From an uncultured Clostridium sp. (lineage in GTDB: Bacteria > Bacillota > Clostridia > TANB77 > CAG-508): a stretch of DNA of 64,000 nt. The notes beneath the pieces were generated by a model. It was not told where the DNA came from, did no database searches, and worked only from the letters and a program-made list of their open reading frames with translations. Each line of letters starts with the position of its first letter. Positions within the stretch are counted from its first letter, which is position 1. The DNA lies in assembly GCA_902491155.1 (NCBI GenBank), contig CABUGH010000001.1, positions 28,177-92,176 of the forward strand, read 5' to 3'. The position numbers and the translations under genes are program-made. Positions 8,146 to 56,257 of the stretch are shown here, piece after piece.

Positions 8146-10614
8146 GTGATAAATTTGAAAAATATAGAAAGATATGAAACAAATACAAAAACAGGACTAA
8201 CAGCAGAACAAGTCCAAAAAAGAATAGAAGAAAATCTAGTAAATCATGACACAACAGTACCAACAAAAAGCATAAAAAAAATATTATACGAAAACTTTTT
8301 TACATTATTTAATCTAATAAATCTTGTATTAGGACTATGTATATTTTTTGTAGGCTCATACAAAAACATGCTATTTTTACTCATAGTAATAATAAATACA
8401 GCAATAAGCACTATTCAAGAAATCCATTCAAAAAAAGTAGTGGATAAATTGTCAATAGTTGCATCTCCAAAAGCTACAGTAATAAGAAATAGTAAAAAGG
8501 AAAATATAGATATTCATCAATTAGTTTTAGATGATATTATCATCTTAAAAACAGGTGACCAAATTGCAGCAGATTGCAAAATTCTAAATAATGAGGTCGA
8601 AGTAAATGAATCTTGCATAACTGGAGAAACAAATACAATTAGAAAAAAAGTTGGTGATTTACTACTTTCTGGAAGCTACATTGTAAGTGGCAATACTACT
8701 GCAAAAATTGAACATATCGGAGAAGAAAATTACACTGCCAAAATTTCAAGTGGTGCCAAATATGTAAAAAAAGTAAAATCAGAAATCATGACTTCTCTAA
8801 ACCAAATAATAAAAATACTAACTTTTGCAATTATACCTATTGGAATTTTATTTTTTGCTAATCAATTACGTATTCCTGGAAATACATATCAATCAGCAGT
8901 TGTAAAATCAGTTGCTGCAATAATTGGCATGATACCAGAAGGTCTAGTACTATTGACAAGTACTGTATTAGCCGTAAGTGTTATAAGACTTTCAAAATCA
9001 AAAGTTCTAGTACAAGAACTTTATTGCATAGAAACATTAGCAAGGGTTGACACCCTTTGCTTAGATAAAACTGGAACACTAACAGAAGGTAAACTTCAAG
9101 TAGAAAAAACAATTCCAATTATGCAAGAAAAACTTTTAGAAAAGAGCTCTGTAAATTCTAAAAAACCAGAAAATATTCAAAATACAAATACAATTAGAAA
9201 TTCAGAAAACTTACAAATAATATTAAACTTATTTGCTAAATTTTCACCAGATTCTAACACAACAATAGAAGCTATTAGAAATTTTTGTACTAAAAACAAA
9301 ACAAAAATTGATAAAAATTATCAGCTTAATCAGGCTGTACCTTTTTCTTCAGAAAAAAAATGGTCTGGAATATCAATAACCAATAATGGAAGCTATGTTT
9401 TAGGAGCACCAGAGTTTGTGTTAAAACAACAATTCAATATTTTTAAAAATGATATTTTACATTATCAAGAAGATTATAGGGTTCTTGCAATAGCGTATTC
9501 AAATAATGATTTTGAGAATAATGAATTACCAGAAAATCTAGAATTGCTTGGATTTGTCATACTTTCTGATATAATACGTAAAGATGCTAAAAATACTCTT
9601 CAATATTTTAAAAATCAAGGTGTAAATATAAAAATAATATCAGGTGATAATCCTGTAACCGTTTCTAAAATTGGTAAACAAGTTGGTTTAGAAAACTATG
9701 ATAAATATATTGATATGTCTACTGTTAAAGATTGTGATATCAATAAAATAGTCGAAAATCATACTATTTTTGGCAGAGTTTCACCCATACAAAAAAAATT
9801 AATTATAGAAGCTTTACAAAACAATGGTAAAACTGTTGCTATGACTGGTGATGGAGTTAATGATGTTTTAGCTTTAAAAACTTCTGATTGTAGTATTGCA
9901 ATGGCTAATGGAAGTGATGCAGCAAAAAATGTGTCTCAATTGATTTTGTTAAATTCTGACTTTTCTTCTATGCCTAAAATAGTAGCAGAAGGTAGAAGAA
10001 CAATAAATAATATTGAACGTTCCGCTTCTCTATTTTTAGTAAAAACAATTTATTCTTGTTTAAACGCTATTTTGTTTTTACTAATTGGAGAACCATATCC
10101 TTTTGAACCAATTCAACTAAGCTTAATAAGTACTGTAACAATAGGTATTCCTTCATTTGTTTTAGCATTAGAGCCTAACAAAGAACGAATAAACGGTAAT
10201 TTTTTAAAAAATGTAATTTCAAAATCACTACCAACGGCTTTATGTGTAACAACAAATATTTTTGCAATAACAATATTAAAAAAATACAACATACTAACAT
10301 CAGAAGAAAGTTCCACATTATGTATAATCTCAACTGGAATCTTAGGATTGCTCCTATTATTCACACTAGCCAAAAGTAGAAAAAGTGAACAATCAAAATT
10401 ACCTTTTTCAATATTCAGATTAACACTTGCACTTTTAATGACTATATTATTCATCTGCTGCCTTACTACATTTAATTGGTGGTTTGACATAACTGAATTA
10501 TACAATCTTTTTGATAAAATTCTTCCTTTAATTATAACATGTATTCTCAATTACATAATACTAAATTTTATAAACTCAAACTATAAAGCACTTGATTATC
10601 ATAGAAACAATTGA
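8146..10614 (+). CDS. P-type cation-transporting ATPase (P2-type, Ca2+/Mg2+-like)
   Basis: The ORF has the DKTGTLT phosphorylation motif (LCLDKTGTLTEG), the hinge motif TGDGVNDVLALK, and N- and C-terminal transmembrane bundles. It is 822 aa and carries a low-complexity insert (NSKKPENIQNTNTIRNSEN). Confidence 0.9.
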   Translation: MINLKNIERYETNTKTGLTAEQVQKRIEENLVNHDTTVPTKSIKKILYENFFTLFNLINLVLGLCIFFVGSYKNMLFLLIVIINTAISTIQEIHSKKVVDKLSIVASPKATVIRNSKKENIDIHQLVLDDIIILKTGDQIAADCKILNNEVEVNESCITGETNTIRKKVGDLLLSGSYIVSGNTTAKIEHIGEENYTAKISSGAKYVKKVKSEIMTSLNQIIKILTFAIIPIGILFFANQLRIPGNTYQSAVVKSVAAIIGMIPEGLVLLTSTVLAVSVIRLSKSKVLVQELYCIETLARVDTLCLDKTGTLTEGKLQVEKTIPIMQEKLLEKSSVNSKKPENIQNTNTIRNSENLQIILNLFAKFSPDSNTTIEAIRNFCTKNKTKIDKNYQLNQAVPFSSEKKWSGISITNNGSYVLGAPEFVLKQQFNIFKNDILHYQEDYRVLAIAYSNNDFENNELPENLELLGFVILSDIIRKDAKNTLQYFKNQGVNIKIISGDNPVTVSKIGKQVGLENYDKYIDMSTVKDCDINKIVENHTIFGRVSPIQKKLIIEALQNNGKTVAMTGDGVNDVLALKTSDCSIAMANGSDAAKNVSQLILLNSDFSSMPKIVAEGRRTINNIERSASLFLVKTIYSCLNAILFLLIGEPYPFEPIQLSLISTVTIGIPSFVLALEPNKERINGNFLKNVISKSLPTALCVTTNIFAITILKKYNILTSEESSTLCIISTGILGLLLLFTLAKSRKSEQSKLPFSIFRLTLALLMTILFICCLTTFNWWFDITELYNLFDKILPLIITCILNYIILNFINSNYKALDYHRNN

Positions 10615-18562: not shown

Positions 18563-20995
18563 TTATTTTTTCAAAAATCTACATACTAATACAGTCATAT
18601 CATCTTTTGCAAAGCCATAATTATTATCAACTGCTTCATTTAACACTAAATCTGCAATTTTTTTGGTATTAGTAGTTTCAATATCCTCTAAAATATATCT
18701 TAACCATAACTCTTTATTTTTATATTCTACATTAGAATCCAAAACACCATCTGTGCACATTAACATTATTTCATTACTATCTATATCTCTATCATATACT
18801 TGTAAATTTGCATTTGGTACAATTCCAACTGGTAAAGAATTTGCCTTTAATATCTGAACTTTGTCACCTTTTTTTATATATGTAGGACATGCTCCACTTT
18901 TTATAAATTCTATATTACCCTTATACAAATCAATAATTGCAATATCAAGTGTAGCAAAAGCCTCCTTATTTTGATTAATTAAACTAGTGTTTATTAATTC
19001 CAAAGACTTTTCTTTTTGAAAACCCGCAAGTAAAAGATTCTCTAACATTTTCAAAGATTTACTACTACTTTCTTTGGCATTATGTCCTGAACCCATACCA
19101 TCACTAATTGCTAATAAATATTTTCCATCTTTAAGTCTTATATTTAAAACACTATCCCCTGAAATATCACTTTTATTTTTTATTGCATCTGCTGTTCCTA
19201 CTGCCATTACATATTTATCATCTGATAAAAAATTAAGTTTATTGCCCAAACAATTTTCATCATTTAAAACAATTTTTTCATTTAATACTTCAGTAAGTAT
19301 TTTTTCTATAACATCTATTTTAGCCTTTTGCATAGCTTCTACATACATATCTATTAAAAATCTGTCTTGCTTTTTTATTGAAATTTCTTGTATACCAATT
19401 TCTTTTTGTTTCAGCAATTCTAAAATTTGTAGCTTTTCTTTTTCATATTTTTCTTCAATATATACATCTTTTTCAATATCTTTTGCCAAACTAGAAATCG
19501 CCTTTGATACACCACTTAATTGCTCTTTTATATTTTTTTTGTTTTCAGACATTTTTTTCTGCCATACAAAACTAGATTTACTAATTTTATAAGACATATT
19601 TACAACTCGCACCATTTGCTCAATATTTTCTTCCAAGAAATCACTTATTTCTCTGTCATCAAATCCTATTATATAACTATTGCAATCAGCAAAAATTTTT
19701 AGCAAATCCTCTCTTTTTATTTCCTGTTTGTCTATTAATACATTAAATATTTCATCATCAATTTTACCATCCGCATTTTTCAAATCATCATAAAGCATGT
19801 TATTTTCATAACCTTGTAAATTATCTAACAATTCATTAAGAAAAATTTGTTTGTTTTCAATTTCTTTTTGTTGAGGAGTTACATCATCCGTATAAATTTT
19901 TGCCATTTGCTCTATTGTTTCAGAAACATTATTCAATTTTTCTGCTGTTTCCTTAGTCTGACTTAATGCACGACTTGGGACATTTGGCAAAAACTTAGAA
20001 TTATCCATAAATTCTTCAATATCTATTTTTATTGATTTTGGAACAGCAAGTAAACCAATAGATGCTATTAAAATTTCCTTAAAATATATTAGTTCTACTG
20101 TATACCCATTAGATACATATGCAAGTACCACATTTCCTAAACAAAAACCAATAATTACTCCAATCTTTCCAAATCTATTTAAAATTCCAGCACACATACC
20201 AGAAATAGCATAAGCTGCAACCATAAGTGGTTCTGCATTTGTTATTACTCCTAATGTTACCCCAATTGTAACACCCGCTGTTGCTCCTACTAAGATTCCA
20301 TTTTTCCAGCCTAATATAAGGACTATTAATATACTTAAAATATTTCTAATTGAAAATCCATATACATTTAAGTCCCCAAAACATGTAATACTAATAGCCA
20401 ATAATAAACTTGCTCCCATTATTTCTTCTATTGAATAAGCATGTCTTTCTCCTAATCCCTGAAATACAATAATAGAATTCACAAATATTTTATAAAATAC
20501 AACCGATATTACTGAAAATGATATAATTGACAATATATCATATATAGTGAATCCTGAAAAGCCAACTTTTAAAAGTTGAATTACAAAAACTGAAATAAAA
20601 ACATTTTTTGATAAACGTATTTTTTCATTTCTTTCTTCTTCCTGATACATTGGTTTTATAATAAATGTAGAACCGACAAACACTAAAGAAATTATAAGAT
20701 ATGTTATAGCTCCTTCTATTCCAAATCCTATAGCATTTCCAATCAATCCTGCTAATACTACACCTAAAATTGGTACAGAATTTCCCATACAAGCTGCCAT
20801 CATACTAATACCAAATGCTGAAACTTGTCCTCCAGTTCCTACGCCTACCATTGATATCATAAATGACATTATATATAATGGTATATTCTGTATTGAAAAT
20901 ACATTTGCAAATACTCCTGCTCCTTTATGTTTTCCTCCTACATGTGCTTCTTTTATATTTTGAAACATCCTTACCACCTCTAAAACTTTTTTCAT
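18563..20995 (-). CDS. spoIIE: Stage II sporulation protein E (PP2C phosphatase)
   Basis: The 810-aa ORF has an N-terminal domain of about 10 TM helices, a central regulatory region, and a C-terminal PP2C domain (AISDGMGSGHNAKESS, MCTDGVLD). Confidence 0.9.
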   Translation of the reverse strand: MKKVLEVVRMFQNIKEAHVGGKHKGAGVFANVFSIQNIPLYIMSFMISMVGVGTGGQVSAFGISMMAACMGNSVPILGVVLAGLIGNAIGFGIEGAITYLIISLVFVGSTFIIKPMYQEEERNEKIRLSKNVFISVFVIQLLKVGFSGFTIYDILSIISFSVISVVFYKIFVNSIIVFQGLGERHAYSIEEIMGASLLLAISITCFGDLNVYGFSIRNILSILIVLILGWKNGILVGATAGVTIGVTLGVITNAEPLMVAAYAISGMCAGILNRFGKIGVIIGFCLGNVVLAYVSNGYTVELIYFKEILIASIGLLAVPKSIKIDIEEFMDNSKFLPNVPSRALSQTKETAEKLNNVSETIEQMAKIYTDDVTPQQKEIENKQIFLNELLDNLQGYENNMLYDDLKNADGKIDDEIFNVLIDKQEIKREDLLKIFADCNSYIIGFDDREISDFLEENIEQMVRVVNMSYKISKSSFVWQKKMSENKKNIKEQLSGVSKAISSLAKDIEKDVYIEEKYEKEKLQILELLKQKEIGIQEISIKKQDRFLIDMYVEAMQKAKIDVIEKILTEVLNEKIVLNDENCLGNKLNFLSDDKYVMAVGTADAIKNKSDISGDSVLNIRLKDGKYLLAISDGMGSGHNAKESSSKSLKMLENLLLAGFQKEKSLELINTSLINQNKEAFATLDIAIIDLYKGNIEFIKSGACPTYIKKGDKVQILKANSLPVGIVPNANLQVYDRDIDSNEIMLMCTDGVLDSNVEYKNKELWLRYILEDIETTNTKKIADLVLNEAVDNNYGFAKDDMTVLVCRFLKK

Positions 20996-42994: not shown

Positions 42995-43298
42995 CTAAAT
43001 ATTTAAATTCATAGCAAACATACCTATCAAAAAACCTATAATATTACCCATCGCAGTCATTCTTCCATGATACAATTGATTTGACTCTGGTATTAATTCA
43101 CCTGATACTATATATAACATAGCTCCTGCTGCAAAACTCAAACAAATAGCTATTATACCTGTTGATATAGTTCCTAAAATTGCTCCAAAAAACGCACCCA
43201 CCCCTGTTGTTATTCCTGACAATATCACATAAAATATAACCTTTATTTTTGACATTCCACCATTTTTCATTGGAACAGCCATTGATATACCTTCTGGT
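42995..43298 (-). pseudogene. zupT: ZIP-family zinc transporter (ZupT-like) C-terminal fragment, the distal half of a gene split by the inserted element
   Basis: The 95-aa ORF (AVPMKNGG...YIVSGELIPESNQLYHGRMTAMGNIIGFLIGM) matches the last three TM helices of ZupT. The reading frame continues upstream as ...PEGIS-M up to the junction. Confidence 0.8.
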
Positions 43299-43364
43299 TG
43301 ATATAAAAATAGACAGTTTTAATTTTTATTTTTGGCTAATCTAATATTTAATATTAAATTAGCC

Positions 43365-44921
43365 TTATATTTTTTCTTTTAAGTTATTTAATTGTTTAAA
43401 ATTAAAATACAAATCTACTTGTTTATCTTGATGTATCTCTATTCTATTAATAATTACTTTCATAATTTCTGATGTTGGTTTATTTAGACTTAGAAAATCC
43501 TGTACAATACTTTTTATTTTTTCTGTATCATCTTTTTTTGATTCTTCTTTTTGTCTTTTAATTTCTATGTATTCGTTTTCTTTTTGCTTTATTTCATTTT
43601 TTAGTTTCGAGAATAACCTTTCATACATTTCTTCACTTATTTTATTGTTTAATTTATCTACATACATTTGGTCAATATTGCTATTTATTAATTTTATCTC
43701 GTTTTCTAGTTTTTGAAGTATTTTTCCATAATCATATTTTGTCATTTTCTTTTTTACTTCTAATTCGATTTTTTCACTATCTATTTTTTGAAATAAATTT
43801 CTACTATAATTAATTACTGTTTCTTCTAAATTAGAATAGCTAAAACCATGTGATGTACAAAGTTTTAATTTTGAATTTCTGCGATAATTGTTACATACCA
43901 TATAATAATTACCATTCTTTTTTCCTCTTACTCCTATTTTATGTTTGCATTCATAACAAAAAAGTAAACCATCTAATAAAAACATGTTTTTCTTTTCATT
44001 TCTATTATAGTTTTGAACTATTACCATTTTTTGTACTGAGTCAAATACATTTTTTTCTATTATTGGCTCATGTGTATTTTCTACAACAACCCATTTTTGT
44101 TCTGGATTAGCTTTAATTTTCCTATTTTTGTAGTTTATTCTACTTCTTTTATTTTGCACAGTTGTGCCTATATAAGCCTTGTTTTTTAATATATTTTTAA
44201 CTGTTTTATTTTCCCAGAATGTATCTTTATTATATCTTGAGTTATTAGCTGTTGGAATGTTGTTGCTATTTAAGTAATCTCTTATTACCCCAGCTTGATT
44301 TCCTGCAAATGCCATATTAAAAATTTTTCTTACAATTTTAGCCTCTGGCTCATATATTATTAGTTTATTTTTGTCATTTGAGTCTTTTATGTATCCAAGT
44401 GGTGTTTTTCCACCTACCCATTTTCCCTGTTTTTGCATAGTATGCATAGCTGTTCTAATTTTTTTAGACAAGTCTTTAGAATACATATCATTTAGTATTG
44501 ATTTAAAAGGTGCTATGTCATTATTACCATTTGATGTTTCAAAAGTGTCTATTCCATCTGTTACAGAAACATATCTTACATTATTTTCTGGGAACCATTT
44601 TTCTATATATTCTCCCGTTTCTATATAATCACGACCTAAACGAGATAAGTCTTTTGTTACAACCATGTTTATTTTACCTAGTTCAATATCTTTTATCATT
44701 CTTTGAAAATCTGGTCTATTAAAATTTGTACCTGTAAATCCTTGGTCAACATATGTATCTATTAACTGGTACTTCCATCCTAATTTTTGTACATATTCTG
44801 TTAGTAACGTCCTTTGATTTTTTATACTTTCACTTTCGTCATATCCTCTGTCTACGTCTTCTTTTGATAGCCTTATATAAATTGCTACTTTGTATATTGT
44901 TTTTTCTATTTGTTCAAGCAT
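43365..44921 (-). CDS. Large serine recombinase (resolvase/invertase N-domain + recombinase domain + zinc ribbon + coiled coil)
   Basis: The ORF is 518 aa. The N-terminus VAIYIRLSKED carries the catalytic Ser. A Cys-rich ribbon (CYECKHK...CNNY) and a C-terminal coiled coil complete the large serine recombinase architecture. Confidence 0.88.
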   Translation of the reverse strand: MLEQIEKTIYKVAIYIRLSKEDVDRGYDESESIKNQRTLLTEYVQKLGWKYQLIDTYVDQGFTGTNFNRPDFQRMIKDIELGKINMVVTKDLSRLGRDYIETGEYIEKWFPENNVRYVSVTDGIDTFETSNGNNDIAPFKSILNDMYSKDLSKKIRTAMHTMQKQGKWVGGKTPLGYIKDSNDKNKLIIYEPEAKIVRKIFNMAFAGNQAGVIRDYLNSNNIPTANNSRYNKDTFWENKTVKNILKNKAYIGTTVQNKRSRINYKNRKIKANPEQKWVVVENTHEPIIEKNVFDSVQKMVIVQNYNRNEKKNMFLLDGLLFCYECKHKIGVRGKKNGNYYMVCNNYRRNSKLKLCTSHGFSYSNLEETVINYSRNLFQKIDSEKIELEVKKKMTKYDYGKILQKLENEIKLINSNIDQMYVDKLNNKISEEMYERLFSKLKNEIKQKENEYIEIKRQKEESKKDDTEKIKSIVQDFLSLNKPTSEIMKVIINRIEIHQDKQVDLYFNFKQLNNLKEKI

Positions 44922-44999
44922 TTTTCCTCCCTTCTATGCTTGATAAAACAATTTGAATTTAAGTTTAATTATATCTTATTTAAGACAAAATTTTAATGC

Positions 45000-45110
45000 T
45001 CAAAAATGTTTTTCTTTAAAATATTAATTATTAAATGTTTTATTAATTCTTCTAATTCTTCACCTTTTTCGTCGAAGTACATATTAATTTTAAAAGTTTC
45101 ATTCATATCA
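45000..45110 (-). CDS. Possible small ORF (36 aa) with a strong RBS
   Basis: The ORF reads MNETFKINMYFDEKGEELEELIKHLIINILKKNIFEH and is preceded by GGGAGAG 8 nt upstream. It is absent from the ORF track because of its size and is speculative. Confidence 0.25.
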
Positions 45111-45445
45111 ACTCACTCTCCCTATACTATATATACATCCGTTTTTTTATAAAAATTCTCCCTTAAATTAAAATTAATTTAAAAAATTTTCAAATATGTT
45201 CATATATAGTTCAAGGGTAGCTATGCGATAGTTTTCACTATCACACACCTACCCTAGTTAGTAAAATATGTTATTGATTTGGTTCAAAAGCATTGATATT
45301 ACTGATTTTTCTCATTATAAAAAATGTCCATTTTTTTTAGTTTATTTTACTCGAAAATTTGGACATTTTTAACTCACATATAATCTTAAATTAAACTGTT
45401 AAAATAGTACTAGAAAATTGTAAGTTATCTTCAAAAATTTTCTCT

Positions 45446-46042
45446 TTATTTTCTCTTATGCTTCTTATAAATTTCTATTAAATCTGGATCATTTTGATTT
45501 TTAGGTAAATTATTCAAGTCAAAAAATTTCATTTCTTTAGATTCTTCGTTACATTTTAATTCTCCAGCATAATGTCTTATACAATATAGGACTGTATTAT
45601 TTATTACAACATCACCATTCGGATAACTATTTCTTCTAGTTTTTCCTGATACTATGTCTATTAATTCTAAATTTTTTTCTTCTACATCTAAATTAGTTTC
45701 TTCTTTGACTTCTCTAATTATAGTATCCTTAAAACTTTCACCTAATTCTTGGCATCCTCCAGGCAATCCCCATAAATCTCTATCTGCTCTACTCTGAAGT
45801 AATATTTTTCCTTCATTATTAATTATTATTGCTGCAGCACCATCTTGTAGTAGGACAAATTTATGCTGTAATACTCCCATACATAATCGAGTAAAAACAG
45901 GATATCCAATTATATTGCTTAATTCAATTATTTCATCTGGTGTCATATATTCCATTATTTCCTTTAAATTCTCATAATTGATTTTTATTTTTTCTTCATT
46001 AGAAAGTATTTTTATTTTTTTTAATATTTCTTTACTATTCAT
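45446..46042 (-). CDS. NUDIX hydrolase with an N-terminal extension
   Basis: The Nudix box GLPGGCQELGESFKDTIIREVKEETNL (GX5EX7REUXEEXGU) is present. Confidence 0.85.
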   Translation of the reverse strand: MNSKEILKKIKILSNEEKIKINYENLKEIMEYMTPDEIIELSNIIGYPVFTRLCMGVLQHKFVLLQDGAAAIIINNEGKILLQSRADRDLWGLPGGCQELGESFKDTIIREVKEETNLDVEEKNLELIDIVSGKTRRNSYPNGDVVINNTVLYCIRHYAGELKCNEESKEMKFFDLNNLPKNQNDPDLIEIYKKHKRK

Positions 46043-46099
46043 TTTATTATCTCCTACAATACAACAATTTCTACATTAATTTCACCATAATAATATTTT

Positions 46100-47119
46100 T
46101 TACGTTTTGTTATTTAATCTATTTGCTTCAATAAGTAATTTATCAAAATCTGAAACTATTTTTTGATTTTTATTAAATTCATTATACTCTTTTTCTGCTT
46201 TTTCTTCTGCCTGTTTTCTTGATATTTTGCCATTGTCTTTTAAAATGTCATATTTTCTAAACTCCAAAAATTCATTTATACTTTTAGCAAATTCTTCCAT
46301 AGTAAACGTATTTTCTCTTTCAACCAAATCCTCTATATAATCAAAATATCCAGAAACTGTTCTCTCTAATCTTTTGATTTGTCTTTCATCTAAATAGTTT
46401 TTTGCAATCATTACATCTGATTTTAATATTCTTCCATCTGGTGAATTTTTCCACGTTGTTAAGCCCATATTTTCTTTTGTATGGTCTGCATTTTTGTATA
46501 TTATTTCTGCTGCAGTGTTTCCCGTAATGGCATAATGGAATTTATTTTGAACTGTTGCATAAAACTTTTGTGTTATTTCTGAATCTTTGTCATAGTCTAT
46601 ACTACATTCCGCAAATATATCTGTTATTTGCTGCCATATTCTTCGTTCACTTGTCCTAATTGAACGAATTCTTTCTAATAATTCTTTAAAATAGTCTTTT
46701 CCAAATTTTGGACCGTTTTTTAATAATACATCATTTAAAACAAATCCTTTTTTTATATATTCTTTCAATGTATTAGTTGCCCATATTCTAAAGTCTGTTG
46801 CTTGTTTTGAGTTCACTCTATATCCAACCGCTATGATAGCATCTAAACTATAAAATGTTAATTCTCTTGAAACCTCTCTGTTTCCTTCTTTTTGAACTGT
46901 TCGAATTTTTCGAATAGTTCGATTTTCTTCCAATTCATGAGTTTCAAATATCTCCTTTAAATGATAATTTATTGTGTTTACTTCTACATCAAACAATTTA
47001 GACATTGATTTTTGTGTTAACCAAAAATCTTCGCTATCATATAAAACTTCTACAGATATGTTTTCGTTGCATTGACTTTGATAAATTATTAAATCTTTTA
47101 AATTTTCTATTATATTCAT
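46100..47119 (-). CDS. RhuM-family virulence-associated protein
   Basis: The conserved core ...TFYSLDAIIAVGYRVNSKQATDFRIWATNTLKEYIKKGF... is typical of the Virulence_RhuM family. The ORF is 339 aa. Confidence 0.7.
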   Translation of the reverse strand: MNIIENLKDLIIYQSQCNENISVEVLYDSEDFWLTQKSMSKLFDVEVNTINYHLKEIFETHELEENRTIRKIRTVQKEGNREVSRELTFYSLDAIIAVGYRVNSKQATDFRIWATNTLKEYIKKGFVLNDVLLKNGPKFGKDYFKELLERIRSIRTSERRIWQQITDIFAECSIDYDKDSEITQKFYATVQNKFHYAITGNTAAEIIYKNADHTKENMGLTTWKNSPDGRILKSDVMIAKNYLDERQIKRLERTVSGYFDYIEDLVERENTFTMEEFAKSINEFLEFRKYDILKDNGKISRKQAEEKAEKEYNEFNKNQKIVSDFDKLLIEANRLNNKT

Positions 47120-47176
47120 ATTGGTCTCATCTCCTTCTCTATATCTTCATAACTTACTATTTTTCTTAGTTTTATA

Positions 47177-48013
47177 TCAAATACTTTGCCAATAATAATA
47201 TAAGATATTTTTATCAGCATCATAAACTCCTATTTCCCAACCTGTTGCTTCTTCTTTTGTAAAATTATGTTTTTTGTTTTCATCGCTTGTTCTACATACT
47301 AATTCATAATGATAATATCCATTTTTTATTTCAAGTACTTCACGGTTATATTCAAAATCATCTAATATACTATCATCAAGTCTGCTTTTACTCCATTTTG
47401 AATTAACATCTAATTTTTTTACTATATCCTGTCCATTTTCTTTTGAAAATTCATATACATAATAATCTAATCCATCATATTGAATTCCTTCTCTTACACT
47501 ATAAATCTCTCTTTTGATATAGTCTTCTGTCTTTACTCCTAAAATATTACTATAATTATTATGTGTTCCATAAAGGTAGCTTTTTAAATAATATAATTTT
47601 TCATTTTTTAAATCAAATATAGCATAAATCCCCTTACTATCATAATAATATAAATCTTCTCTATCTATATCCTTCATATCATTGTCAACTATCTCATAAA
47701 ATCTCATCATCTCATATTCATAAAATTTGTTTTTACTCCAATAATTGCTTTTCTCTAATTTTCTTCTAAATTCTTCTTTTTCTCCAAACATATTTAATTT
47801 ATATACCGTATACTTCTGTAAAGGGTCATCCTTATATACAGTATAGTAATCTACATTATATGAACTTAGTTCTAGGTTTATTTTTTTATATTCCTCATCA
47901 ACTTTAAAAGTTACTTTTGATATAAGTATATAAATAATCAAAAACATTATAATTACTATTAATAATATAAGTACAACTTCTTTCAAACCTTTCTTATTCA
48001 ATATGAACACCAT
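47177..48013 (-). CDS. Hypothetical membrane-anchored protein (Tyr/Asp-rich extracytoplasmic domain)
   Basis: The 278-aa ORF has an N-terminal signal anchor. No family was recognised. Confidence 0.45.
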   Translation of the reverse strand: MVFILNKKGLKEVVLILLIVIIMFLIIYILISKVTFKVDEEYKKINLELSSYNVDYYTVYKDDPLQKYTVYKLNMFGEKEEFRRKLEKSNYWSKNKFYEYEMMRFYEIVDNDMKDIDREDLYYYDSKGIYAIFDLKNEKLYYLKSYLYGTHNNYSNILGVKTEDYIKREIYSVREGIQYDGLDYYVYEFSKENGQDIVKKLDVNSKWSKSRLDDSILDDFEYNREVLEIKNGYYHYELVCRTSDENKKHNFTKEEATGWEIGVYDADKNILYYYWQSI

Positions 48014-48025
48014 CCTATTATAACA

Positions 48026-49099
48026 TTAAAATTCTCCTTCTTTTGTTTCAAATTTTATTTTAACATTATATGTCTTTATAACTCCATATTCGCTTGAGGC
48101 TACTCCTAAATTATTTAATGTAGTAGATATAATATCTCTTAACTTTCCCTCTTCTTCATCTGCATATTCCCTTAAATCCTTGAAGTCAGTAAAATCATAA
48201 GTATCTTTAATTTCAATTTCTAAATTCCATTTATTATTTTCGTTTCTTGTTCCTTTAACTAATAATGTTGCATCATGGAGAGCATAAAGTAAATCTGCAT
48301 CATCAAATCTAATTAAAGTGTCCTCTCTTGGCGATTTTTCGTCTACAATAAATTCATTTTTCTTTTCTCCATATTTTTCTATTAATTGTTTTAGTTTTTT
48401 CTTAAATATTGGGCTTTCAAGTAATGTCTTTTTTATGTTTTCATCCTCTATCACTAAATCACTGGGTTCTTTTCCAAATATAGATAGTGAATTTGTCAGT
48501 AATTTAGCAGAAAGTGGCTTATTAGTAAATAGTCCACCTATAACGACAACTTGCCAAAACATATATTGCATTGAATAAAATACAGTATATGATATCGGAT
48601 TGTTCTTCTTTGTTATATCAAATATAAAACTTAAACTTTTTATATAACCATTAGCAACTTTTACATCTATATCATTCCAATTTATATTTTGAAAATCTTT
48701 TATAATCTTTTCGAATTTTTGGTAATAATTAAATAATTTATATATATCATTTAATGAAAAATTCATTAATTCTACAGTATCTTTAGAAAAAGGCGTTATA
48801 TTCTTTATATCCTTTAACATTTTTTCTTCTATATTTCTCAATGCATCAAAGTTCATATTCTTTAAATAATTTAGTGCTATGTATTTTTGTGTTAAATCAT
48901 ATTTCTTAGTTTTACTTAAGAAATATTTATGATTTTTCCAAGCAACTTTAGTACATAAATATAATTCCTTATTCCATACAAATTTAGGTGGTTTACGTAT
49001 TCCTAATTCTCCATAAATGTTATCAAGGCATCCTCTTCCAAACATTTTATATTTATAATCATATGGTTTATTGCATAATAAACATCTTTTTTCTTCCAT
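48026..49099 (-). CDS. Hypothetical protein with an N-terminal Cys cluster (CLLCNKP...GRGC)
   Basis: The 357-aa ORF has a possible zinc-ribbon-like N-terminus. No family was recognised. It is the first gene of the cargo operon. Confidence 0.45.
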   Translation of the reverse strand: MEEKRCLLCNKPYDYKYKMFGRGCLDNIYGELGIRKPPKFVWNKELYLCTKVAWKNHKYFLSKTKKYDLTQKYIALNYLKNMNFDALRNIEEKMLKDIKNITPFSKDTVELMNFSLNDIYKLFNYYQKFEKIIKDFQNINWNDIDVKVANGYIKSLSFIFDITKKNNPISYTVFYSMQYMFWQVVVIGGLFTNKPLSAKLLTNSLSIFGKEPSDLVIEDENIKKTLLESPIFKKKLKQLIEKYGEKKNEFIVDEKSPREDTLIRFDDADLLYALHDATLLVKGTRNENNKWNLEIEIKDTYDFTDFKDLREYADEEEGKLRDIISTTLNNLGVASSEYGVIKTYNVKIKFETKEGEF

Positions 49100-49304
49100 A
49101 GATTTATCAATCCCCTTTTTATTATTATAAGTTATATTAATTATTCTATTTATATCATAATATTTAAAACTTTTCCATAAACTTACAAAATTTATTTTTT
49201 CTCGATTTTATATCAAACATTTGTTTTTGTCAATAGTTAAAAATAAATTTCAAAATTTTTTTAAACTCTGAAATTTAAGTATTTCTATTAAATTCAAATT
49301 GTTT

Positions 49305-49772
49305 TTATCTAGCATACTGTCTACTTTGAAATCTACCTTCTGGTATATCATGTAAGCAAATAGCAATAGCAAGACTAATTCCTAATTTTATAGATGCATT
49401 AAATCCAGAACCTATTGCTAACCCTTCTGGAAAATTATGAATAGCCAAACCTATAGAAATAACAATACCTGTTTTTAATAATTGATTCGACTTTACATTT
49501 TCTGCTCTTTTATCCACAAACAAATCACAAAAAATCATAACAACAATTCCGAAAAATATTCCTAATAAAACTGGAAATATCTCACTAATTTCCAAAGCTT
49601 CTGGTATTAAATCAAAACAAATAATTGCCATCATTAATCCAGAAGCAAACGATAAAATAAAACTTAAAAACTTATTTGAATTTTTCTTTACATATACTCC
49701 AATTAGCCCTCCTAATGTAGTACCAAATGTGCCAAAAAACAAACCTAATAAAGTAGTCTTTAAAATTTGCAA
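49305..49772 (-). pseudogene. zupT: ZIP-family zinc transporter (ZupT-like) N-terminal fragment, the proximal half of the split gene
   Basis: The ORF has TM helices and the paired metal-binding motifs HNFPEGLAIG and HDIPEG. After PEG it reads into the element and terminates after 9 unrelated residues (RFQSRQYAR*). Confidence 0.82.
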
Positions 49773-54237: not shown

Positions 54238-56257
54238 TCATTCATCAATTGGTCCAAATAATTCATCAAACTTGGCCTCAAGTTCTTTCTGTAAATCATA
54301 TTCATCATCTTGTGGAAGTACAGGGGCCTCATCTCCAAAATCTTCTAAAGAAGTAACATTTGTACCGACTTTTACTGGTATTTTTTCTTCTATTTTGTCA
54401 ACATTTTGGGCAAGAGATTCTTTTTTCACATCTTCATCATCTTCAAACAAATCATCTAAAGATTCTACTTTTAAATCTTCAACTTTTTGTTCTTCGCTTT
54501 CTGGTACATATGGATTATATGGATTATACTTTCTCCATCCTCCTCTTTGTATTTCTCCAATATCATTATGACTAATTTCATGACTAGCTAATTCCTTTGC
54601 CATAGGATGTTTAAAATAATAAAATTTTGGTGCTTTTACAGGTTTCAAACCTTTAACAAATATAATACATTGATCTATATCCATTCTACGCAACTCATCC
54701 GGAGTCATTAAAGCACGCGCCATAACTTGATCTGATATGCTCTTTCCTGTTTTATGGTTTTCTTTATCCTTACTTATTGAAATACTATCTCTGCCTATTG
54801 TTTTCTCACCTAATTGCTTTGAAAAATATTCAACAGTTTTAAAAGAGTTACTTCCCAAAAATAAATGTGTATCACAATTTCCCATTATAGTCTCATAAGA
54901 TTTTTCATAAACAGCCTCTAATTGATCTACATTTTGTAAAATTACACTAAATGAAATTTTTCTACTTCTTGAAGTTGAAATTTTTTTATCAAAATCAGGT
55001 ATTTTTCCTATATTTGCAAATTCATCTAATATAAAAAATGTTTGTTCCTTCAATTTTCCACCATTTTGGTCAGCATAATCATATAATTGTTGTATCATTT
55101 GTGAAAAAAATATTGTTAGCAAAAAGTCATATGCAGTATGTGTATCAGAAGAAATTACATAAACTGCTGTCTTTTGATTTCCGATCTCTTCAAAGTCAAT
55201 TGTATCTGTAGATGTTAATTCAGCTATTTCCTTAGAATCAAATTTACCTAGTTTTGATTGTAAAGTACTTAAAATAGAACTATATGTTTTTTCTGGTGCA
55301 ATTTCAATAGATTTATAATACATCCTAGCAGGATGATCATATGGTAAAGCACTAATTAACTCTGTTAATAAATTACTCCCTCCATTTGAGTTTGCCGCTC
55401 TAACTAATTCCGCACAGCTAGCCAAATTTTGTTCTTCCTTTGGTCTTGTTGCCAATAAATAATAAATCAAAGCTTTTAACAGCATTTCCGCTGAATCATC
55501 CCAAAAAGGTTCAGAACTCCCTCCATCTGTTTTTTGACCTCTAATAATGGTATTTGCAATTACATCGACATCGATTTCTGAAGATATGTGCATTAATGGA
55601 TTATATCCATCACTATATTGAGGCCTTACTAAATTTAAAACTTTAATTTTATAACCATGATCTTTTAAATATCCTGCTGTTCTATCATACAATTCACCTT
55701 TTGGATCTGTAAAAACATATGAACCAAGCATTTGATATGCATTTGGAATTGAATATGATGCTGATTTACCAGAACCAGAACCGTCCAACTACCAACACAT
55801 TTACATTTCCTCTTTTATCTACAGGTAAATAATTATTTTCCGCTAAAATAATTCCTTTGTTTTTATTTAATATAGCATATTGTTCACCATGTTGACTCCA
55901 ATCACTTGAACCATGTTCTATATCTGTATATTCACTCTTGGGCGCAGACTTAAAAACGCCAATAATAAAAGCCACAATATAAATAATTGTAAATCCCAAT
56001 AATGTAGATAAAAAATTACTTACTGCACCATTAGAAAATATACTTCCAAATGATTTAAAAGGATGAATTATATTTTTTGTAAAATTACTCAAAAACAAAG
56101 CAAGATCAAATGTATCACCTTTTCCCACTTGAAAAATAGAATACGAAAAAGGCGAAATAAATATTAAGACTAAAATAAGCCATAATATTCCGCCAACAAT
56201 AAACTTTTTCCTATTCTTTTTTAATGCACCTTCTATTTTATAGTTCATTAATATCAC
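54238..56257 (-). pseudogene. Type IV secretion coupling protein (VirD4/TraG/TraD family), frameshifted into two ORFs (55766-56257 N-terminal TM part; 54238-55788 ATPase part)
   Basis: The N-fragment has two TM helices and ends ...NVNVLVVG. The C-fragment begins in the +1 frame with DGSGSGKS (Walker A), then DPKGELY..NPL and DEF (Walker B), and ends in an acidic tail. The two ORFs overlap by 23 nt. Confidence 0.75.

Follow-up and report, generated by a model that had tools for sequence, protein, structure and literature searches.

When a recombinase-carrying element splits a chromosomal gene and its precise removal would rebuild that gene, is the element part of a programme of its host, or is it mobile DNA that has landed in a coding sequence? 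The question is raised by zupT, a gene for a ZIP family zinc transporter, in a 64,000-nucleotide stretch of contig CABUGH010000001.1 (assembly GCA_902491155.1) from an uncultured Clostridium sp.; this whole stretch is called the window here, and positions are counted from its first letter. The original prediction had taken the 6,035-bp insert in zupT to be a skin-like sporulation intervening element whose excision controls metal uptake. Comparison with related loci points instead to a small, recently active, gene-disrupting integrative element that is mobilized by a large serine recombinase (LSR) and belongs to an abundant new family. We put the probability of this reading at about 0.8.

The zupT gene is divided between two open reading frames (ORFs), which were found where the original prediction had placed them (Table 1). 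The ORF of the 5' part runs through a core sequence into the element and ends ...CLHDIPEG, then RFQSRQYAR and a stop codon. The TACCTTCTGGT 11-mer that forms the core has only two copies in the window, one at each junction (0 expected in 100 shuffles). In-silico removal of one repeat and the 6,035-bp insert gives a stop-free ORF of 732 nt, which encodes 243 aa and reads ...CLHDIPEGISMAVPMKNGG... across the joint. This fused protein is a ZIP transporter (Pfam Zip, PF02535, E=1.1e-28), and its alignment with intact proteins of 243-247 aa covers the full length at up to 93% identity; HDIPEGISM is invariant among these proteins. Related species have an uninterrupted locus with the same synteny (RF1 - zupT - PcrA - CotF) and one ACCAGAAGGTA copy. 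The element supplies no replacement 3' end for zupT, as had been claimed and as the ORFs that were read bear out.

Metagenome contigs of the same species provide occupied and empty alleles of this locus. Contigs that encode an RF1 protein identical to that of the window were taken as the same species, and 24 of them were read. Eighteen are occupied and have the gene order of the window (for example L085 and L089-L094), and six are empty (for example L086-L088), their RF1 and PcrA genes flanking a complete Zip gene of 243 aa. The species is polymorphic for the insertion. Alignment of 13,062 bp between the window excised in silico and the empty contigs gives 99.86-99.99% identity; the alignments with L087 (99.89%) and L088 (99.99%) are free of gaps, and the latter has a single mismatch. 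The ZupT encoded by empty contigs differs from the fused ORF at 0 of 243 residues, so the intact transporter of about 243 aa that was predicted to follow excision exists as a natural allele, and attB in these contigs is TGCTTACATGATATACCAGAAGGTATATCAATGGC. Alignment of the junctions with uninterrupted zupT genes had been proposed as a check; when it was run, the empty sites equalled the predicted excision product exactly, and the element boundaries are therefore exact. Because a near-identical strain (one mismatch in 13 kb) lacks the element, its gain or loss must be very recent.

LSRs join short attB and attP sites, and both sites can be read from the junctions. In the window, attB is a perfect palindrome (8+4+8), GATATACC-AGAA-GGTATATC, that spans zupT codons D142-S148. 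The joined element ends give a predicted attP of CTGTCTATTTTTATATCAACCAGAAGGTAGATTTCAAAGTAGACAG, whose arms are inverted repeats (CTGTCTA...TAGACAG) centred between AG and AA, as in attB. The family consensus for attP is about 46 bp long and is a near-perfect palindrome with 21-bp arms, CTGTCTACTTTGGAATCAACC-AGAA-GGTAGATTCCAAAGTAGACAG. This layout, a short shared core with inverted repeats about a central dinucleotide in both attB and attP, is the one expected of an LSR. Where relatives have entered an ABC ATPase gene, their two junctions have only CAGAAG in common; because they share nothing more, the crossover is placed inside these 6 bp, where it most likely falls at the central GA. GA is also the central dinucleotide of TnpX and TndX, which would agree with this placement. 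The 11-mer had been proposed as the boundary of the insert. It does lie at both junctions and the boundaries are exact, but the crossover is narrower, and the 11-mer is the extent of attB/attP identity at this locus only. One relative, L059 (about 10009-10060), carries its element reversed within zupT; its core is inverted to TTCT and reads ACCTTCTGGT beside the recombinase. Such a reversal would follow if the polarity of insertion is set by the one asymmetric part of an otherwise palindromic site, its central dinucleotide.

The 518-aa LSR that the original prediction reported in the insert is confirmed by its domains, with matches to PF00239 (Resolvase, 5e-24), PF07508 (Recombinase, 3e-25), and PF13408 (Zn_ribbon_recom, 2e-11). 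The residues Y15-I16-R17-L18-S19 are invariant in 12 relatives, and Ser19 is the predicted catalytic residue. The nearest solved structures in the PDB are the catalytic domain of TnpX (3e-26) and then SPbeta SprA (3e-21); at 518 aa, the recombinase is shorter than TnpX. NCBIfam matches to CcrC (108 bits) and CcrB (99 bits) are far under the 900-bit cutoffs, and a match to XisF is likewise far under its cutoff. A match to DUF4368 is weak (E=0.009); this domain is typical of the TndX-like multi-targeting clade (PMC10083194). Homologs of the recombinase number in the thousands, and at 68-93% identity there are more than 100 clusters of them.

The choice of targets within the family indicates what the recombinase recognizes. 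When one genome was scanned for each species, 358 relatives of the recombinase were found, and the best 80 loci were examined; target classes were called from the sequence beyond the recombinase-side junction (80-81 loci). The most frequent target is zupT, entered between HDIPEG and ISM at 29 loci, with four more recognized by their upstream halves or inverted orientation. An ABC ATPase gene is entered between THDISEA and ISM, just past the H-loop, at 20 loci and in L031. At 16 loci the target is a second, distant ZIP paralog (ZIP2), cut at its first PEG motif between HNIPEG and MAV, and three loci have insertions at other ZIP PEG positions. Recombinases that are 88-93% identical to that of the window use all three main targets. 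Fusion across the insert yields an intact 248-aa ABC_tran protein from the ABC gene and a Zip protein from ZIP2. The target sites follow a common pattern, CAT-(G/A)A(T/C)-AT(A/T/C)-(C/T)CAGAAG-(G/C), with the motif ATA-(C/T)CAGAAG-G. The zupT and ABC sites are alike solely because both genes encode HDI(P/S)E(G/A)ISM at this point. Since the same clade enters the ABC ATPase gene, and a further ZIP paralog at two positions, wherever the motif occurs, targeting is by DNA sequence and not by gene function.

Elements of this family appear to move between species. Element DNA is 84-90% identical to elements of other species, compared to 69-84% for the flanks. Identity between recombinases does not follow identity between the zupT genes; in L008 the recombinase is 93% identical to that of the window, and the zupT halves are 72% and 80% identical. 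Elements that are more alike across species than their hosts, and recombinase and zupT identities that are uncoupled, indicate horizontal transfer. Cargo is hypervariable. The 23 fully bounded elements are 3.9-10.4 kb in size and carry 77 cargo clusters, and the smallest element (L030) is about 2.4 kb. The recombinase is the only universal element gene. Together with the 37-aa ORF, a conserved non-coding block that holds a hairpin, and the two element ends, it makes up the constant module of the family; all other element DNA is interchangeable cargo. Other cargo in the family includes methionyl-tRNA synthetase (MetRS), FtsX/ABC proteins, zeta toxin, GNAT and hexapeptide acetyltransferases, radical SAM proteins, rubrerythrin, adenylosuccinate synthetase, a sigma factor, kinases, NERD, HepT, and RhuM, the last of which is present in nine elements.

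The interrupted gene has decayed in part of the family. Among 14 fused zupT genes, eight are intact and six have lesions (one of these, L039, is ambiguous on recheck). A frameshifted or truncated zupT half is present in 9 of 34 zupT-class loci. In these loci 9 of 51 zupT halves are broken, compared to 2 of 42 flanking PcrA and RF1 control genes, which is a 19-fold excess per residue (p=1e-5). Because the flanking genes in the same loci are rarely broken, the zupT lesions are taken as real and not as assembly errors. In a sizeable minority of species, judging from these reading frames, excision would no longer be able to rebuild a working transporter. In the window itself both zupT halves, the recombinase, the cores, and the attP arms are all intact. 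Damaged recombinase genes were also seen in some members of the family (split into 440 and 87 aa in L023, cut to 445 aa in L082), and these two elements are probably stranded.

Table 1. Positions of the zupT parts, junctions, and element features in the window.
Feature	Position	Strand	Remarks
zupT 3' part	42995..43287	-	codons 147-243 and stop codon
zupT 3' ORF from internal ATG	42995-43282	-	95 aa; starts three codons past the second core copy
Core copy, 3' junction	43288..43298	-	
Element right end, other attP arm	43299..43316	-	CTGTCTATTTTTATATCA on coding strand
Large serine recombinase	43365..44921	-	518 aa; Resolvase, Recombinase, and Zn ribbon domains
Conserved 37-aa ORF	44993..45106	-	MxExFKINxYFDExGEELExxI...; ribosome-binding site
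Promoter-like block	45126..45153	-	TTTATA-16-TATAGT; overlaps conserved TGTATATAT extended -10-like motif; just 5' of 37-aa ORF
Conserved 18-bp hairpin	45214..45255	-	AGGGTAGGTGTGTGATAG-TGAAAA-CTATCGCATAGCTACCCT; in conserved non-coding block 5' of recombinase module
Cargo NUDIX hydrolase	45446..46042	-	PF00293, 1e-16; PADLOC candidate defence PDC-S07, 5e-12
Cargo RhuM-family protein	46100..47119	-	Pfam PF13310, 2e-108; PADLOC candidate defence PDC-S05, 4e-153
Cargo ORF	47177..48013	-	278 aa; N-terminal hydrophobic stretch (read by eye); no family assignment
Cargo ORF	48026..49099	-	357 aa; no family assignment
Best sigma-70-like site in element	49205..49233	-	TTGACA-17-TAAAAT, 11/12; 5' of cargo genes; consensus match only
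zupT 5' ORF as called	49305-49772	-	155 aa; passes core, then nine element-encoded codons and stop
Element left end, one attP arm	49317..49333	-	GATTTCAAAGTAGACAG on coding strand; inverted repeat of other arm
Core copy, 5' junction	49334..49344	-	ACCAGAAGGTA on coding strand; encodes P-E-G of HDIPEG
zupT 5' part	49345..49772	-	codons 1-143

The biochemistry of LSRs suggests how such an element would move. The recombinase would pair attP with an attP-like chromosomal site, and staggered cuts at the central GA followed by strand exchange would insert the circle. Recognition of DNA sequence would bring the element to ATA-(C/T)CAGAAG-G, which is found in two ZIP PEG metal-binding motifs and in the HDISEA-ISM codons of the ABC ATPase. 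The target gene would be truncated by the insertion, which the host evidently tolerates. The same enzyme, perhaps with the 37-aa protein encoded upstream of it as a helper or else unaided like TnpX of Tn4451, would then excise the element in a conservative reaction and restore zupT exactly. Exact restoration follows from serine-recombinase chemistry and is therefore no evidence in itself of a developmental programme.

Intervening elements that regulate the integrity of a gene are known in sporulating bacteria, and we weighed this account for zupT. Under regulated integrity, whether of a skin-like or an active-lysogeny-like kind, condition-specific excision would turn the zinc importer on, irreversibly in a terminal cell or reversibly. 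Several features fit it: precise excision restores an intact and fully conserved gene, the element brings no 3' end of its own, 8 of 14 fused zupT genes are still intact, the conserved small ORF beside the recombinase could be a directionality factor, and the host has sporulation genes. These genes, which the original prediction had noted, are confirmed as SpoIIE at 18563-20995 and a CotF-domain gene; a second candidate for SpoIIE, at 8146-10614, was rejected as a P-type ATPase. Insertion at the same codon has also occurred many times independently across species (at least 29 times in zupT), which is the operational sign of regulated gene integrity used by Mageeney et al. (PMC7192596). The same clade, though, also breaks an ABC ATPase gene and ZIP genes at other positions, with nothing but a DNA motif common to these sites, a situation that parallels the rimO/rhtB case (PMC7192596). 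A skin-type element would be expected to leave its interrupted gene intact across carrier lineages, and 9 of 34 zupT-class loci are decayed. It would also be expected in a sporulation gene; the gene interrupted here encodes a ZIP metal transporter, and to our knowledge ZupT is not a sporulation gene. Cargo varies, elements pass between species, and the insertion is polymorphic within one.

Scans of the locus also gave no regulatory sequence of the kind that such control would suggest. Matches to a Zur-box-like pattern are at chance level, and none is near zupT or in the element. The TGTATATAT motif 5' of the 37-aa ORF is an extended -10 that does not have the CATA of sigma-E/sigma-K promoters (a weak inference), and no attP junction is present in the contigs scanned. 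For these reasons neither the skin-like sporulation element nor the excision-dependent control of metal uptake put forward by the original prediction was borne out, and we regard regulated integrity of zupT as unlikely. A related proposal is that the cassette is a reversible on/off switch for ZupT, excised under the direction of the 37-aa protein on a signal such as sporulation or metal stress and inserted again later. The population would then be a mixture of cells with zupT on and cells with zupT off. This proposal fits the 18 occupied and six empty near-identical alleles from different samples, and we consider it improbable.

Two further accounts concern the fate of the insertion in this lineage. 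The element may be an immobile remnant and zupT a pseudogene; the exact recombinase of the window is integrated at the same site in 23 of 23 contigs, no circles were detected in the scanned contigs, and some relatives are decaying, both in their recombinases (L023, L082) and in several frameshifted zupT halves. Against this, the window recombinase is full length and retains the invariant R17-L18-S19 with the predicted catalytic serine, both cores and the attP arms are intact, the zupT halves are identical to the intact allele, and a strain only one mismatch in 13 kb away does not have the element, so that gain or loss was very recent. We judge a dead insertion very unlikely. Even less likely is a functional ZIP transporter assembled from separately made 155-aa and 95-aa fragments. 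The in-frame ATG of the 95-aa ORF does have AGAAGGT 7 nt upstream, with a Shine-Dalgarno-like AGAAGG inside the core, and the 3' part lies downstream of the recombinase gene with no canonical terminator found between them. However, the cut falls within the HDIPEG metal-binding motif of a transmembrane helix, and the frameshifts that affect one half or the other at 9 of 34 zupT-class loci speak against selection to keep the halves; a functional split transporter is hardly credible. In the same interval a conserved hairpin, GGCTAATTTAATATT/AAATATTAGATTAGCC (43331-43364, minus strand), stands directly 3' of the recombinase stop codon, and the run that comes after it is rich in A and not in T. Because this hairpin is not a canonical terminator, read-through from the recombinase gene into the zupT 3' fragment is possible.

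The reading of the insert as a recently active mobile element has evidence against it as well. Neither a family-specific nor a looser pattern detected a joined attP junction or circle in contigs of JGI metagenomes, in IMG/VR, or in the 130 loci fetched, in scans that had no positive control and on assembled contigs, which rarely capture circles. All 23 contigs with the exact window recombinase have the integrated form at the same site. Excision is deduced only from the empty alleles, which could equally be sites that were never occupied. The decay of zupT halves is not significant when it is tested per gene (p=0.10). The near-universal 37-aa ORF suggests some control of excision or integration, and a regulated role could be accommodated. 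Cargo was surveyed by Pfam in the top 25 of 70 families, and no transfer machinery was found that would account for horizontal spread between cells.

Small clostridial elements with a single LSR are already known from Tn4451 and Tn4453, which resemble this element in size (about 6 kb), in carrying cargo, and in their recombinase, TnpX, whose catalytic domain is the best PDB match to the window recombinase. The LSR of Tn4451 excises a circle, uses a 2-bp crossover, and carries out both reactions without a directionality factor (PMC5704250). Unlike Tn4451/Tn4453, the elements described here have no Mob relaxase family detected in the window cargo or in the top 25 cargo Pfam families, their targeting is narrower (a motif of about 20 bp in three gene families), and they have the conserved 37-aa ORF. 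The sporulation intervening elements skin (sigK, SpoIVCA), SPbeta (spsM, SprA/SprB), and gin (gerE, GirC/GirX) are similar in that an LSR element interrupts an ORF that precise excision rebuilds. In those elements a small partner protein controls the direction of recombination, and small non-phage examples such as gin exist (PMC5595907, PMC4191935, PMC5499854, PMC5025042). The family of the window differs from them in its metal-transporter target, in the unrelated genes hit by the same clade, and in its variable cargo, interspecies transfer, and decayed targets.

Staphylococcal SCC elements, which are mobilized by Ccr recombinases, share with this family a hypervariable accessory cargo, the lack of their own transfer genes, and an LSR that acts at one chromosomal sequence, and CcrC and CcrB are the top NCBIfam matches. 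At 108 and 99 bits compared to 900, these matches do not place the recombinase among the Ccr proteins. The insertion of SCC at the 3' end of rlmH leaves that gene active, whereas here a gene is cut in mid-domain. Serine-recombinase integrative and mobilizable elements typically insert in dispensable genes and disrupt them (Guedon et al., PMC5704250). Thousands of LSRs have been catalogued, and 82.8-88.3% of their clusters target one to three gene clusters (Durrant et al., 2022, PMC10083194). Domain-disrupting insertions were reported for 117 of 465 serine integrases (Mageeney et al., 2020, PMC7192596). Repeated disruption of a domain at the same site was termed "regulated gene integrity," and the rimO/rhtB case, which involves look-alike sites, was left open as possibly off-target (PMC7192596). 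Zip is not among the 410 disrupted domains listed by Mageeney et al. (PMC7192596), and the pairing of zupT with an LSR is absent from the literature searched. The statement that a zinc importer is new as an interrupted locus thus stands within that literature, in which neither ZIP nor zupT was met as an LSR target.

Directionality factors determine whether an LSR integrates or excises, and the module upstream of the recombinase has a candidate for this role. The approximately 450 bp 5' of the recombinase are as conserved as coding sequence. The 37-aa ORF in this region precedes the recombinase at 66 of 67 loci, reaching relatives with recombinases of 64% identity; its conservation pattern is protein-like, and independent gene callers also call it. 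The peptide resembles no Pfam family and no chain in the PDB, SprA-SprB fusion entries included. It is a candidate recombination directionality factor or regulator; if it is a directionality factor, it is shorter than any known to us. The 18-bp hairpin further upstream has compensatory changes at three pairs among 12 variants. Its loop sequence in the window is TGAAAA; that of several relatives is of a GNRA-like type (GAAA, GAGA, or GTAA). An Rfam search of the element gave nothing credible and left this hairpin unmatched; its possible roles are those of an RNA element, a protein-binding site, or an origin-like hairpin. Sigma-70-like sites number 56, compared to a shuffle expectation of 55.9, and because the count equals expectation, individual promoter sites are offered as suggestions only.

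In the window, the AF2 model of the 357-aa cargo protein (pLDDT 84) has a weak resemblance to the colicin M fold. The 278-aa gene always follows the 357-aa gene, and the pair is found in four elements, one of which (L010) is in the ABC ATPase gene. Relaxase (Mob), conjugation, and phage structural genes were not detected in the window cargo or in the top 25 Pfam families among 65 cargo representatives. A phage or phage-satellite origin was rejected: PHROG matches are to integrase and NUDIX only, and no viral relative of the recombinase exceeds 36% identity (best GenBank phage 36%, best IMG/VR 35%). In two contigs from sample ERZ27242394 (L092 and L100) the assembly breaks within the RhuM gene of the element, which points to further copies of RhuM (repeats) within that genome or community.

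Outside the element, the window encodes a VirD4-like coupling protein at 54238-56257 on the minus strand (NCBIfam conju_CD1115, 1.6e-129; 516 aa), which overlaps a 163-aa ORF before it. Because the related species L001, L002, and L004 have a single 687-aa gene at this place, the gene looks frameshifted in this species. It has conserved synteny beside SbcCD-like genes, with no obvious conjugative element.

As a genome feature, the insert in zupT is ordinary, being another serine-recombinase element that disrupts a dispensable gene. It carries a caution for genome scans: exact reconstitution of a split gene comes automatically from serine-recombinase chemistry and, taken alone, is not evidence of developmental control. 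It also offers a natural recombination system as material for integrase tools, with a 518-aa recombinase, a near-palindromic attP some 46 bp long, a number of attB variants from nature that chart the sequence tolerance of the enzyme, and a conserved 37-aa candidate directionality factor. The family to which it belongs is large and previously undescribed, and consists of gene-disrupting serine-recombinase integrative elements of a known kind. In uncultured gut Clostridia with small genomes, its members are very abundant minimal cargo shuttles that move accessory and defence-like genes between species.

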